NCBI GenBank assembly: GCA_002429245.1 | Contig: DIZA01000002.1 | Coordinates: forward strand, 44,350-108,349 | Direction: 5' to 3' | Source: Candidatus Saccharibacteria bacterium UBA6040 | GTDB lineage: Bacteria; Patescibacteriota; Saccharimonadia; Saccharimonadales; Saccharimonadaceae | DNA length: 64,000 nt | In this document: piece by piece, positions 6,232 to 49,070 of the stretch | How the letters are laid out: each line of letters begins with the position of its first letter | Numbering within the stretch: position 1 is the stretch's first letter | The notes under the pieces: generated by a model | What the model saw: the letters and a program-made list of their open reading frames with translations, nothing else | Database searches by the model: none | Told to the model about the DNA's origin: nothing | Translations under genes and position numbers: made by a program

Positions 6232-7743
6232 ATGGCAACACTAAAAGACTTCCGTGACGAACGACTTCGCAAGCTCGAAGACCTAAAAGGATTAGGATTT
6301 AATCCTTATCCTGCTGAATCGCATCGAACGCACAATGCGGGTGCGGTTATTGCTGACTTTGATGCACTTGAAAACCAAACCGTTACCGTTGCAGGGCGTA
6401 TTACCGCAATTCGTAAGTTCGGAAAGCTCGCATTCATCGTTGTTAAAGACTTTAGCGGTCAAGTACAACTGTATTTGAACGAATCTGAAGTTGAAGGACG
6501 GGATGTTCCTTCGAATCGTCTTGGTATCGAAGACCTACCGCTACTTGATACCGGCGACTTTATTGAAGCCACTGGATCTGTTGGGAAGAGTAAGACTGGC
6601 GAGATCTCTGTCTTCGTCAAGCAAATCCGCTTGCTTACTAAAACGCTTCGCCCAATGCCAAGCGCACAAGAAGGCTTTACGAACAAAGAAGAGCGCATGC
6701 GTCGTCGTTACATCGATATGAACGTGAACCAAGAGGTTCGTGATCGCTTTATTCGTCGCAGTAAGTTTTGGCAGGCGACTCGTGATTTCTTGAACACAAA
6801 TGATTTTATTGAAGTAAACGTTCCTGTGCTTGAGCACACCACCGGTGGCGCTGATGCGACTCCTTTTGTGACACACATGGATGCTTTGGACCAAGACTTT
6901 TACCTACGTATTAGTCATGAACTTCCTTTGAAACGTCTTATCGGTGCTGGCTTTGAAAAAGTCTACGATATTGGTGCACGATTTAGGAACGAAAACTACA
7001 GCGACGAACACCTTCCTGAGCACGTTGCGATGGAATGGTACTGGGCATACGCTAACTGGCAAGACGGCCGTAAGTTTATGGAAGACATGTACAAAGATGT
7101 TTTGAAAAAAACATTTGGGACACTGCAATTTAAGCTTGGTAAGTTCGATGTGAACATGGACGGCGACTGGGAGATCTGGGACTACGCGACCGTTATTAAA
7201 GAACGATATGGCATCGACGTGTTTGAATCGTCCCTCGATGATGTCAAGAAAGCACTGGCTGATAACAAACTTGAAGTTGAACAAACTGAAAACCGCGCTC
7301 GCGGTATCGACAAGCTTTGGAAGAACATTCGTAAGGATGTGGCGGGACCTGTCTGGCTGGTTAATACACCGACATTCATTAGTCCTTTGTCTAAAACAAA
7401 TCCTGACGATGCGCGTACGGTACAACGTTTTCAGCCTGTCATTGCTGGGTCTGAACTCGGTAACGGATTCTCTGAATTGAACGACCCGGTTGACCAACTG
7501 GATCGTTTCGTCGAGCAACAAGGTATGCGCGACAGTGGTGATGATGAAGCAATGATGCTTGATATCGATTACGTTGAAATGCTCGAATACGGTATGCCAC
7601 CAGCTGTAGGTTGGGGATATAGTGAACGTGTCTTCTGGATCTTTGAAGGTGTCACTGCTCGGGAAGGCGTGCCTTTCCCGCAACTTCGTCACGAATACGA
7701 CGAAGTCACCAAGGGTCTCTACCCTGATGTCAAATTCGACTAA
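6232..7743 (+). CDS. lysS: Lysyl-tRNA synthetase (class II)
   Basis: OB-fold anticodon domain, GGADATPFVTH, YLRISHEL, ELGNGFSELNDP, YGMPP. Confidence 0.98.
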   Translation: MATLKDFRDERLRKLEDLKGLGFNPYPAESHRTHNAGAVIADFDALENQTVTVAGRITAIRKFGKLAFIVVKDFSGQVQLYLNESEVEGRDVPSNRLGIEDLPLLDTGDFIEATGSVGKSKTGEISVFVKQIRLLTKTLRPMPSAQEGFTNKEERMRRRYIDMNVNQEVRDRFIRRSKFWQATRDFLNTNDFIEVNVPVLEHTTGGADATPFVTHMDALDQDFYLRISHELPLKRLIGAGFEKVYDIGARFRNENYSDEHLPEHVAMEWYWAYANWQDGRKFMEDMYKDVLKKTFGTLQFKLGKFDVNMDGDWEIWDYATVIKERYGIDVFESSLDDVKKALADNKLEVEQTENRARGIDKLWKNIRKDVAGPVWLVNTPTFISPLSKTNPDDARTVQRFQPVIAGSELGNGFSELNDPVDQLDRFVEQQGMRDSGDDEAMMLDIDYVEMLEYGMPPAVGWGYSERVFWIFEGVTAREGVPFPQLRHEYDEVTKGLYPDVKFD

Positions 7744-47054: not shown

Positions 47055-47084
47055 ATCAACAGGTATAAATAATTCTGTCAAAAT

Positions 47085-47110
47085 TGGGGGTTGTAGTGGG
47101 TAATAGTGGG
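47085..47110 (+). promoter_or_regulatory. Putative MraZ-binding direct repeats
   Basis: (T/G)GGG at 10-nt period (47087-90, 47097-100, 47107-110), like known MraZ operators. Confidence 0.7.
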
Positions 47111-47220
47111 TTGTATGATGAGTCCAAGTGGCAAACAAAAAGAGCCCACTAAAACAAACAATTACATTAAAAAATAACCTATACAAAATCCATCGAATTA
47201 ATCGAGGAGAAGAACACATA

Positions 47221-47589
47221 GTGGCAAGCGTAGATTATTTTGAGCGAAGACTCGATGACAAGCGTCGTTTGACGATCCCATCTGAGCTCCGTACGGAATT
47301 TATCTCCGGAGTCGTTCTTACTCGTGGATTCGGTCGTTATCTGCATCTCTATCCTAAAGATATTTGGGACGGGGAAGTCGAAACCGCACTCAGCGCTAGC
47401 TCTAGTATTCTCGATGAGAAAACTGCTGACGTCAACGTGCAATTTCGCCGTGGCAAGACCGAAGCCGAACTTGATCAAAAACAGGGACGTATAACGATCG
47501 AACAGCATCTTTTAGACTATGCTGGCATTGGTCGTGATATTGAAGCTGTTCGAGCGGGTAAGTACTGGCGTTTAATGACGTCTGAGTAG
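47221..47589 (+). CDS. mraZ: Transcriptional regulator MraZ (compact)
   Basis: LDDKRRLTIP and LDQKQGRITI AbrB-like repeats; GTG start after GAGGAG. Confidence 0.92.
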   Translation: MASVDYFERRLDDKRRLTIPSELRTEFISGVVLTRGFGRYLHLYPKDIWDGEVETALSASSSILDEKTADVNVQFRRGKTEAELDQKQGRITIEQHLLDYAGIGRDIEAVRAGKYWRLMTSE

Positions 47590-47662
47590 TATAGGCCGTT
47601 TCCCGACATTCCGTAATTGTTAATCATTCGTTCTTTAACAAACAAACACAAGAGAAACACTC

Positions 47663-47910
47663 TCGAGATCAACTATCTGGTAGTGAGGCGTGGATTCTAG
47701 GAACACATTAACCAACCTAGAGCACCTTCCTCAAAAAACAACACCTCCCAAACTCCACCTCACATAAGTCTCTCAACAAGTTTTAGTCCTGAACGTTAAA
47801 TGGGTATGAGTTGCATTCTGCAGCCCCCATGTTCTTCACTAAAACTGACTTTTTAAAACAAACACACCTTGCGAAAACAAACAGCTTCACTATCAGTTAG
47901 GTGATCTCGA
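47663..47910 (+). ncRNA. Unassigned 248-nt structured element between mraZ and rsmH
   Basis: 27-nt arms 47663-47689/47884-47910 (23 WC, 2 G-U on +, 2 mismatches); internal hairpins 47696-47721 and 47779-47846. Confidence 0.55.
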
Positions 47911-47946
47911 ACGTCTTACAGCGTACCAAATGGTATACTGTAGGCA

Positions 47947-48840
47947 ATGAGTAAAGAATATCCACCACATCATATTCCGGTTCTGCTTGATGCAACCCTA
48001 AAAACCCTTGATCCCAAGGAAGGCGAGACATATCTCGACCTGACTGCAGGCTACGGAGGTCACGCGGGTGAAATCTTAAAGCTAACAGGAAATTTCGAGG
48101 GTAGCGTTCTTGTTGATCGTGATGACTATGCTATTGAGCATTTGTCTGACTACGAAAACAAAGGCGTCCGTCTTATGCATACCGACTTTGAATCCGCTGC
48201 ACGTCAGCTGGTCTTGGAAGGGAAGACATTTGACCTTATCCTGATAGATCTGGGGGTGTCGTCACCACAGCTCGATCAGAGCAACCGAGGGTTTTCTTTT
48301 AAAAATAGTGGTCCGCTAGATATGCGCATGGATCGTCGACAACCATTGTCGGCACACGATCTGATACAAGGTGCATCTCTAGATGAACTGACAAGGATTA
48401 TTCATGAATACGGTGAAGAACCGTACATGAATGCAAAGCATATTGCTGAGCTGATCATTGCCAATCGACCATTCAGTTCCACTGAAGACCTCGCTAGACT
48501 GATCGCAGAAAACCAACGAGGCGCACGATGGACGCAAAGAATCCATCCCGCCACGCGCACATTCCAATCGCTCCGCATTGCCGTCAACGACGAGCTCGGG
48601 CAAATTGAAAGAACCTTACCGTTACTTCCGAAACTGCTCACAAAGCAGGGGAAAGTAGCAGTGATCAGCTTTCACAGCCTTGAAGACCGACTCGTTAAGC
48701 GTTTTTTCAAAGATCAATTTGAGCTAGGCCTTGAAGCCGAACTCGAACCAATCACGAAGAAGCCGATTCCAGGAGCCACTGAAGACGTTCACAATCCGCG
48801 TTCTCGTAGTGCAAAGCTACGGGTCGCCGTGAAAAAATAA
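47947..48840 (+). CDS. rsmH: 16S rRNA m4C1402 methyltransferase
   Basis: HIPVLL, DLTAGYGGH, DLGVSSPQLD, GPLDMRMD, NPRSRSAKLR. Confidence 0.98.
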   Translation: MSKEYPPHHIPVLLDATLKTLDPKEGETYLDLTAGYGGHAGEILKLTGNFEGSVLVDRDDYAIEHLSDYENKGVRLMHTDFESAARQLVLEGKTFDLILIDLGVSSPQLDQSNRGFSFKNSGPLDMRMDRRQPLSAHDLIQGASLDELTRIIHEYGEEPYMNAKHIAELIIANRPFSSTEDLARLIAENQRGARWTQRIHPATRTFQSLRIAVNDELGQIERTLPLLPKLLTKQGKVAVISFHSLEDRLVKRFFKDQFELGLEAELEPITKKPIPGATEDVHNPRSRSAKLRVAVKK

Positions 48841-48867
48841 ACAAAAACAGGGAAAGGGCAAAACACC

Positions 48868-48933
48868 ATGCCAATTCACATCACAGTACAGTACTCAGAC
48901 CAACCACAAATTGTGGCAGTTCGAGTAAAGTAA
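48868..48933 (+). CDS. Unannotated 21-aa ORF MPIHITVQYSDQPQIVAVRVK
   Basis: Purine-rich GGGAAAGGG upstream; followed by a 14-bp hairpin. Confidence 0.4.
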   Translation: MPIHITVQYSDQPQIVAVRVK

Positions 48934-48943
48934 CCAGAACAGT

Positions 48944-48974
48944 CTAACCAGGGGGCGGTGCGCCTCCTGGTTGG
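48944..48974 (+). terminator. GC-rich hairpin without U tail inside the dcw cluster
   Basis: CTAACCAGGGGGCG-GTG-CGCCTCCTGGTTGG. Confidence 0.6.
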
Positions 48975-49070
48975 GCACCATATACACGCACCAAAAACCA
49001 CCACAAAAATAAACAAAGAAAATACACTGCACGCTCTCATTCTATGATTGCGCTGCGCGCAAATACCACT

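Follow-up and report, generated by a model that had tools for sequence, protein, structure and literature searches.

A conserved structured RNA with the layout of an rRNA leader lies between mraZ and rsmH in Saccharibacteria

Introduction

What lies between mraZ and rsmH in Saccharibacteria, and does the space between these two genes carry a function of its own? The question was raised by a stretch of 64,000 nucleotides from Candidatus Saccharibacteria bacterium UBA6040 (GenBank assembly GCA_002429245.1, contig DIZA01000002.1, positions 44,350 to 108,349 of the forward strand), which we refer to as the window and whose numbering is used throughout unless another contig is named. In the window, both genes are encoded on the + strand and are separated by a spacer of 357 nt (47590-47946). 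A first-pass annotation made from the letters alone had named the two genes and the gap between them, and it had proposed that the gap encodes a structured RNA of 248 nt with exposed C-rich tracts. The identities and the gap were both borne out by Pfam searches and by the coordinates, and our analysis revealed that the spacer encodes a conserved, strand-specific structured RNA of approximately 250 nt that is found across the whole order.

There are few non-coding elements that are conserved to such a degree across a whole order. Saccharibacteria are obligate epibionts with genomes of less than 1 Mb, and a retained non-coding sequence therefore stands out in them. In addition, mraZ and rsmH are two widespread genes with debated roles, and the site of the element offers a handle on the control of the division cluster in the candidate phyla radiation. 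Saccharibacteria are transformable, and genetic tools exist for them (PMC10187176).

Structure of the spacer RNA

The RNA extends from 47663 to 47910 on the + strand, which confirmed the size of 248 nt proposed earlier. The folding energy of the + strand was -92.3 kcal/mol (z = -7.3), a value that none of 100 shuffled sequences equalled, and the fold of the - strand had a z of -2.8. From 5' to 3', the element begins with a boxA-like sequence and a linker of approximately 20 nt. A closing helix (P1) follows, whose two strands enclose, in this order, an H-type pseudoknot, a single strand (J1), an extended hairpin (P4) and a second single strand (J2).

The 5' strand of P1, TCGAGATCAACTATCTGGTAGTGAGGC, occupies positions 47663-47689 of the + strand, and its 3' strand, GCTTCACTATCAGTTAGGTGATCTCGA, which holds an almost invariant TTAGGTGA, occupies positions 47884-47910; both were identified by folding and by covariation. 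A helix of 27 bp with G-U pairs on the + strand had been proposed here. The 27-nt arms and the G-U pairs stood, but the helix in the window consists of 25 pairs, including two G-U pairs on the + strand, and is interrupted by two internal mismatches. Our alignments contained 58 and later 145 non-identical elements. Alignments derived from a covariance model (CM) are biased towards the modelled structure, and changes in P1 were counted without a CM, in a plain MAFFT alignment of 40 sequences sharing less than 80% mutual identity. Across these diverse sequences, 93.4% of the P1 cells were paired, compared with 46% at most in controls in which the helix was slid. Compensatory changes were observed in 18 of the 25 pairs, and cells with double-sided changes numbered 142, compared with 37 in shuffled alignments (0/500 as high). 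The non-canonical positions of P1 were also conserved, being R.G in 31/40 sequences and U.U in 26/40. Because many of the P1 cells are G-U pairs, which would be A.C mismatches on the other strand, the RNA is encoded by the strand that carries mraZ and rsmH.

Two hairpins had been drawn inside the closing helix. The second of these corresponds to P4, but the first gave way to an H-type pseudoknot (47690-47721, + strand), a feature that the first-pass annotation did not contain and that is supported by compensatory variants among the 145 sequences. Its first stem (S1) pairs G47690-G47692 with C47704-C47706 and has the form (A)AGUGG/CCACU(U). Its second stem (S2) joins C47697-G47701 to C47716-G47720. 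The upstream half of S2 (e.g., AGGG) lies inside the loop of S1, and its partner, CCCU, lies beyond an A-rich third loop (47707-47715). The variants of S1 keep their pairing (GAGG/CCUC, AUGG/CCAU, GCGG/CCGC and CUGG/CCAG), and the same holds for dozens of S2 sequences. In a CM alignment of 99 sequences, 82.5% of the S1 cells were paired, and cells with double changes numbered 59, compared with 14.9 in shuffles (0/500 as high). For S2, a partner-swapping test with a wide window discriminated poorly, and a test anchored on the CM alignment was used instead. In this test, the 3' tetramer of S2 paired fully within its own sequence in 79 of the 99 cases, compared with 20.6% when partners were swapped.

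The pseudoknot is followed by J1 (47723-47778, + strand), a C/A-rich single strand with 1 G in 56 nt that was unpaired in both the minimum free energy and the centroid folds. J1 holds three C-rich tracts, CACCTTCCTC (47723-47732), CACCTCCC (47742-47749) and CTCCACCTC (47753-47761), all on the + strand and all unpaired in the fold. The earlier suggestion that such tracts are exposed thus held, and they belong to the most conserved part of the element. The near-invariant core of J1, AACACCTCCCAAACTCCACCTCACATAAGTCTCTCAA (47740-47776, + strand), showed 83-94% identity in 22 of the 24 other families of the order. Within the core, ACACCUCCCAAAACUCCACCU(CA)CACAUAAGUCUCUCAA is invariant or nearly so, and in more than 25 families approximately 39 nt hardly vary. 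P4 (47779-47846, + strand) varies in both sequence and length (34-124 nt), and its fold was stable, with a mean z of -3.84 over 99 diverse sequences and a z below -2 in 90% of them. J2 (47847-47883, + strand) is single-stranded, conserved and A/C-rich. It carries the motif AAAACAAAC twice (47855-47863 and 47874-47882), and its columns AAAACAAA and AAAAC-AAA show no or almost no variation. Recurrent AACAAACA-type motifs had been noted previously and were recovered at 47637-47649, 47855-47865 and 47874-47884, the first of them overlapping the boxA. Because J1 and J2 are both poor in G and are not complementary to each other, they would be held open between P1 and P4.

The possibility that the spacer encodes a small protein was rejected: there was no open reading frame (ORF) of at least 30 aa on the + strand, and the indels are not multiples of three. 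In particular, the core of J1 carries a 2-nt indel, which excludes that this invariant sequence is coding.

Conservation and distribution of the element

The element is present as a single copy in the 866-kb genome. A DNA search of 61 related genomes returned a match in 58 of them, and every match was located between mraZ and rsmH. Within the genus, nearly the whole element could be aligned, with 72-87% identity. In 22 of the 24 other families of the order, the part that could be aligned was restricted to a core of approximately 40-60 nt, at 83-94% identity. The DNA identity of this core exceeds that of the flanking genes, whose proteins are only approximately 50-70% identical. Because a strand of 39 nt surpasses the flanking essential genes in DNA conservation, the element is almost certainly important to these organisms.

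Among 174 Saccharibacteria loci, mraZ was found upstream and rsmH downstream in 159; of the other 15 loci, 12 were cut by contig ends and 3 had no mraZ that we could find. The length of the spacer in this set ranged from 277 to 664 nt. When the core pattern was used to scan one genome per species, at least 120 contigs matched, and those among the matches listed belonged to Saccharibacteria/Saccharimonadales, including complete genomes of oral taxa, together with a few metagenome-assembled genomes carrying other labels. In 401 sampled Patescibacteria genomes, the core pattern (with up to 3 mismatches) was found in 13, all of them within the order, and the element was not found in other classes of Patescibacteria in this sample. 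Similarly, a CM comprising the pseudoknot and the core matched 6 of 7 genomes within the order and 0 of 144 others. The alignment of spacers across Saccharibacteria, which had been suggested as a check on the first annotation, showed both that the spacer is conserved and that its helices covary. The idea of a miniature inverted-repeat transposable element or another dispersed repeat, which had been named as a possible refutation, was rejected, as there is one copy in 866 kb and the site is the same in 159 of the 174 loci.

A boxA and the layout of an rRNA leader

A boxA-like element, GTTCTTTAACAA (47630-47641, + strand), which was also absent from the first-pass annotation, lies 40 nt past the mraZ stop codon and 21 nt before P1. 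The consensus of boxA is GYTCTTTAANA (PMC5725501), and GTTCTTTAACAA matches it perfectly; the comparison also included the consensus form UGCUCUUUAACAA. The consensus of the boxA of the element, RGYWCYTTAACAA, was found in 134 of 142 elements, compared with 7 of 142 shuffled sequences. The distance from boxA to P1, 21 nt in the window, is mostly 20-30 nt overall, with a tail that reaches 245 nt. In E. coli/Enterobacteriaceae, boxA and boxC are separated by 18-19 nt, and boxA alone suffices for antitermination complexes of the rrn type (PMC10250234). It has been proposed for the pre-rRNA of E. coli that the complex prevents the leader strand from leaving the polymerase before the trailer has been made, and that the leader-trailer helix forms in this manner (PMC10250234).

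The layout of the element resembles that of an rRNA operon leader in several respects. In both, boxA is followed after approximately 20 nt by a long-range helix, which in the element covaries and has at least 25 bp; this is the arrangement described for the pre-16S of E. coli (PMC10250234). The 16S leaders of the same genus share this layout: in congeners, GATCTTTGACAA immediately precedes the strand that the leader contributes to the 16S processing helix. Moreover, NusB and RNase III are both encoded. The element also differs from an rRNA leader, because its helix encloses a non-ribosomal RNA of approximately 190 nt rather than 16S or 23S rRNA, it sits after a protein-coding gene in the division cluster, and equivalents of boxB and boxC are not established for it. 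No other stable RNA apart from rRNA is known to be bracketed by a boxA and a helix of the leader-trailer type. We found no rRNA operon in the assembly of the window itself, which lacks both 16S and 23S rRNA genes although it is 99.99% complete by markers. On a congener contig (C1:373000-379500), there was no 23S signature within 6.5 kb downstream of the 16S gene, and the rRNA genes appear to be unlinked.

NusB is encoded in 13 of 13 Saccharibacteria genomes. In contrast, a search with a single Pfam domain, the Rho RNA-binding domain PF07497, detected it in 0 of the 13 genomes but in 9 of 10 bacterial controls, and Saccharibacteria thus seem to be without Rho-dependent termination. A Rho attenuator, in which a rut site is guarded by boxA, was therefore rejected as an explanation of the C-rich, G-poor tract, as no Rho was encoded in the genomes tested. 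For the same reason, a Nus complex assembled here would more plausibly serve folding and processivity than protection against Rho. A boxA and a leader-trailer-type helix around a non-ribosomal RNA in organisms without Rho constitute a natural test case for the question of whether the Nus complex is primarily an RNA-folding chaperone or an anti-Rho device.

In the genome of the window, nusB is located on contig C6 (5652-6044), with rnc, which encodes RNase III, approximately 0.5 kb downstream (~6567-7259). This neighbourhood (C6:5652-7259) links the two factors that would act on the element under the scheme proposed below. Contig C5 of the same genome carries another boxA-like sequence, TGCACCTTAACAA (347882-347894); it is preceded by a hairpin and lies in a gap of approximately 600 nt between ORFs that has no Rfam match.

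Probable transcription of the element

A putative mraZ promoter with MraZ boxes was identified at 47084-47119 on the + strand, with a -35 element TTGTAG (47091-47096), a 17-nt spacer and a -10 element TATGAT (47114-47119). The G-rich boxes of the form (T)GTGGG(T), at 47085-47090, 47096-47100 and 47106-47110 on the + strand, follow each other at 10-nt intervals. By analogy with MraZ of E. coli, we take them to be MraZ operators, and they are probably autoregulatory. The arrangement of this promoter is conserved in relatives, each of which has 3-5 boxes of the GTGGG type. In other families, the mraZ promoter has four boxes, two of which lie past the -10 element.

No promoter was predicted on the + strand between mraZ and boxA, and the gap between the mraZ stop codon and boxA is only approximately 16 nt in some species, which leaves no room for a separate promoter. 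A promoter dedicated to the RNA was therefore rejected, and the RNA is most simply a continuation of the mraZ transcript. The mraZ promoter is thus probably the only promoter that feeds it.

Downstream of the RNA, an extended -10 element, TGGTATACT (47931-47939, + strand), comprises a TG at 47931-47932 and TATACT at 47934-47939 and ends 7 nt before the ATG of rsmH. The first-pass annotation had assigned rsmH its own -10 at 47934, an assignment with which conservation agrees: of 36 species in the genus, 35 carry TATA(A/C)T at 6-9 nt upstream of the rsmH ATG, and in 27 species this distance is exactly 7 nt. Because the -10 is so near the ATG, the rsmH mRNA of the genus would be leaderless, and because this promoter lies downstream of the RNA, the mraZ transcription unit of the genus ends with the RNA. 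A GGAG often abuts the rsmH ATG, too close to function as a Shine-Dalgarno (SD) sequence.

Among 116 more distant loci, an rsmH promoter of this kind was found in 28; in the remaining 88, an A-rich leader devoid of an SD sequence leads from P1 to the start codon of rsmH. The earlier placement of the RNA at the 3' end of mraZ accordingly holds for the genus of the window but not for most other families, where rsmH has no promoter of its own. In most lineages the RNA lies between two cistrons, whereas in the genus it closes the mraZ unit, and it is equally conserved in both situations. In approximately 15 species of the genus, an extra module of approximately 90 nt, absent from the genome of the window, is present between P1 and the rsmH promoter. 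It consists of two hairpins, of which one is long, A/T-rich and ends in AAAATGAAGTTCTTCATTTTT and the other is GAGATATG...CATATCTC, and it could be a terminator or an inserted element.

Comparison with known RNA families

We scanned the spacer against Rfam 15 (within a 1.7-kb search) and found no match at E values up to 10. No description of this mraZ-rsmH RNA was found in the literature either. The element is a new class of RNA that reuses a known logic of biogenesis, namely a boxA and a leader-trailer helix, in a new place.

Two known RNAs invite comparison because of their position or order of parts. The mraW RNA motif (RF01746) of Actinobacteria, reportedly described by Weinberg and colleagues in 2010, is a conserved element just upstream of mraW/rsmH in the division cluster. 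The element studied here also precedes mraW/rsmH in the division cluster, but it belongs to a different phylum, and the model of the motif does not match in the spacer (E up to 10). The mraW motif is also a much smaller hairpin motif. A tmRNA has the same order of parts as the element, i.e., a long closing helix, a pseudoknot, a single strand and a hairpin. However, a tmRNA (RF00023) was rejected, since the locus showed no CM match and no tRNA-like domain, and the indel in the core breaks the frame. The genuine tmRNA was detected elsewhere in the genome by the Rfam model (contig C2:11332-11708), where it had been missed by ARAGORN.

Possible maturation and function

Taken together, the layout of the element suggests how it might be made and used. 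The reading that we favour, tentatively and at a little less than an even chance, is that of a stable RNA that is matured in the manner of rRNA, acts in trans, and presents invariant single strands to a partner. Under this reading, transcription would begin at the MraZ-controlled mraZ promoter, and the RNA would be made as a continuation of the mraZ message. NusB and NusE would bind the emerging boxA, and the polymerase would thereby retain the 5' half of P1 by a tether until the other half has been transcribed. The long-range P1 would in this way form around the folded core, as proposed for pre-rRNA; in the absence of Rho, the Nus complex would be engaged for folding and processivity and not for protection against Rho. 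P1, which amounts to two helical turns of duplex, might then be cut by the encoded RNase III, freeing a stable RNA of approximately 200-250 nt and splitting the mraZ message from the rsmH-dcw message. The two G-poor strands J1 and J2, open between P1 and P4, may form a binding platform for a conserved partner, for which the candidates are a single-strand RNA-binding protein or ribonucleoprotein (RNP) and a purine-rich (SD-like) RNA. The amount of the RNA would in this way be tied to the MraZ-controlled transcription of the division cluster.

Several parts of this scheme carry different weight. An RNase III-type substrate is expected to show a covarying long-range helix of at least ~20 bp around its product, and P1, with its 25 pairs, has this form; P1 is thus a plausible candidate substrate of RNase III. 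It is likewise plausible that the RNA is released as a separate species, because boxA is combined with a long-range helix of 25 bp as in pre-rRNA and RNase III is encoded. The role of J1 and J2 as a display platform is suggested by the fact that the enclosed structure and the invariant strands far exceed the needs of a processing site or a boxA. The link to the control of cell division, which had been part of the first proposal, rests on position.

There is also a more specific form of this reading, in which the element is a lineage-specific housekeeping RNA made through the rRNA maturation pathway within an MraZ-controlled division operon, and forms the core of a trans-acting RNP or is a global regulator similar to 6S RNA. 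We consider this possible but rather doubtful. If it were true, transcription of the division cluster would be coupled to translation or growth in these ultra-small epibionts, and the element would be the first non-ribosomal stable RNA known to have the antitermination/chaperone layout of rrn operons.

Several observations weigh against a trans-acting RNA of the kind that we favour. The boxA is a putative NusB/NusE site whose function is read from its sequence, and in about a third of the species it lies 100-245 nt from P1, a distance that the tethering model fits less well. No promoter can be recognised for rsmH in most other families, where the gene comes directly after P1, and a role purely in cis would explain the position of the element equally well. 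Searches for a partner also gave no support. The complementarity of the core to the 16S locus of a congener and its flanks was no better than that of shuffled sequences, and its complementarity to the G-rich MraZ-box region and the 5' untranslated region (UTR) of mraZ was worse than that of shuffles (mean z +1.1 over 57 genomes). A genome-wide duplex scan revealed no outstanding or extended target, the best non-self duplex (-36 kcal/mol) consisting of interrupted helices. In addition, neither Hfq nor CsrA was found by tblastn with the E. coli proteins as queries, which is a weak test. This result weakened the protein-sponge idea of the first-pass annotation, and the target search it had suggested, against mRNAs with an SD sequence, brought no specific mRNA to the fore in the genome.

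The strongest competitor, although somewhat unlikely in our view, is an element of the dcw operon that lies between cistrons and acts in cis only; once excised, the piece would do nothing by itself. The boxA and the structured RNA might modify the polymerase for processive transcription of a long operon; alternatively, P1 might be an RNase III site that uncouples the stability or stoichiometry of the mraZ message from that of the rsmH-dcw messages. Such a role agrees with the position in the operon, which is fixed in every genome, and with the 88 of 116 distant loci that have no recognisable rsmH promoter and an A-rich, SD-less leader from P1, in which transcription of dcw must pass through the element. 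Structured antitermination RNAs inside operons, such as EAR and put, are also known, and the sufficiency of boxA alone for rrn-type complexes (PMC10250234) points the same way. However, neither a processing site nor a boxA needs approximately 190 nt of enclosed structure with a covarying pseudoknot and an invariant strand of 39 nt, the classical motive for antitermination is gone in the absence of Rho, and the RNA is fully conserved in the genus even though rsmH has its own leaderless promoter downstream there. A particular trans-acting alternative would be a polymerase regulator of the 6S/Ms1 type, in which P1, the bubble and the hairpin mimic an open promoter. Like 6S and Ms1, the element is a rod of 200-300 nt (~250 nt here) with a closing helix, a large internal loop made of two non-pairing, G-poor strands, and a terminal hairpin (P4), and it is embedded in an operon; E. 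coli 6S RNA is likewise co-transcribed with a downstream ORF. The role also appears to be unfilled, since 6S RNA (RF00013) was undetectable in 21 of 21 Saccharibacteria genomes, but the same search found it in only 5 of 10 bacterial controls, which makes this absence weak evidence. We nevertheless regard a 6S-like regulator as improbable, because neither RF00013 nor a related Rfam model matches in the spacer at E values up to 10, and the bubble (56 + 37 nt) is several times larger than that of known 6S RNAs and holds a pseudoknot. Moreover, 6S RNA is conserved mainly in shape, whereas the element has a long invariant sequence.

We assign a similarly small chance to the main idea of the first-pass annotation, i.e., that the element is an anti-SD mimic, a small RNA whose exposed CACCUCC-type tracts pair with SD sequences and repress translation, as do those of RsaE/RoxS. 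The ACCUCC of the core is indeed the anti-SD core at the 16S 3' end of these organisms (GGAUUACCUCCUUUCU), the tracts are single-stranded and invariant, and the element shares with RsaE/RoxS and CrcZ both the unpaired C-rich motifs complementary to GGAGG and the A/C-rich repeats resembling AAnAAnAA on a structured scaffold. It differs from those RNAs in that the invariance covers approximately 39 contiguous nt, far beyond a seed, and in that the searches given above returned neither Hfq or CsrA nor a specific target. The invariance also reaches past CCUCC to AUAAGUCUCUCAA and into the A/C-rich strand, an extent that pairing with SD sequences leaves unexplained. Generic pairing of this type would not be specific, and the result of the duplex scan likewise counts against this idea. 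A riboswitch-like sensor that controls rsmH, with the pseudoknot as its aptamer, is very unlikely. Small riboswitches such as preQ1-I and SAM-II possess an H-type pseudoknot with an A-rich third loop, and rsmH uses SAM, but no riboswitch model in Rfam (preQ1-I and SAM-II/V included) matched at E values up to 10, the pseudoknot is more than 220 nt from the rsmH start with a promoter intervening in the genus, and there is neither a terminator nor a platform that sequesters an SD sequence beside the start codon. Least probable, with hardly any weight in our estimation, is an element that acts at the level of DNA, either as another MraZ operator, carried by the opposite strand (GGTGGAG...TGGGAGG), or as an inverted repeat that is mobile or arose by chance. 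Opposite the core, the sequence is G-rich, and its GTGG and TGGG motifs loosely resemble the MraZ boxes upstream of mraZ; however, they differ from the conserved (T)GTGGGT boxes and do not show the 10-nt spacing, the helices on either side of the core covary and have their G-U pairs on a single strand, and the single copy of the element gives no sign of mobility.

Flanking genes and neighbouring untranslated regions

The longest ORF of mraZ spans 47128-47589 on the + strand (Pfam MraZ, 4.8e-13). Most relatives align only from residue ~32 of this ORF, and a good SD sequence, GAGGAG, is present at 47204-47209; therefore, the gene probably starts at the GTG at 47221, which gives a likely true coding sequence of 47221-47589 on the + strand. 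The rsmH (mraW) gene, at 47947-48840 on the + strand (Pfam Methyltransf_5, 1.6e-86), encodes the 16S rRNA m4C1402 methyltransferase.

In the 5' UTR of mraZ (~90 nt), an AGUGG...CCACU hairpin is followed by AAAACAAAC, a combination that resembles S1 of the pseudoknot. The spacer between rsmH and ftsL (48841-49043) is A/C-rich and G-poor and contains a GC-rich hairpin, CCAGGGGGCGGTGCGCCTCCTGG. The same A/C-rich, G-poor composition marks all three untranslated regions that open the dcw cluster.

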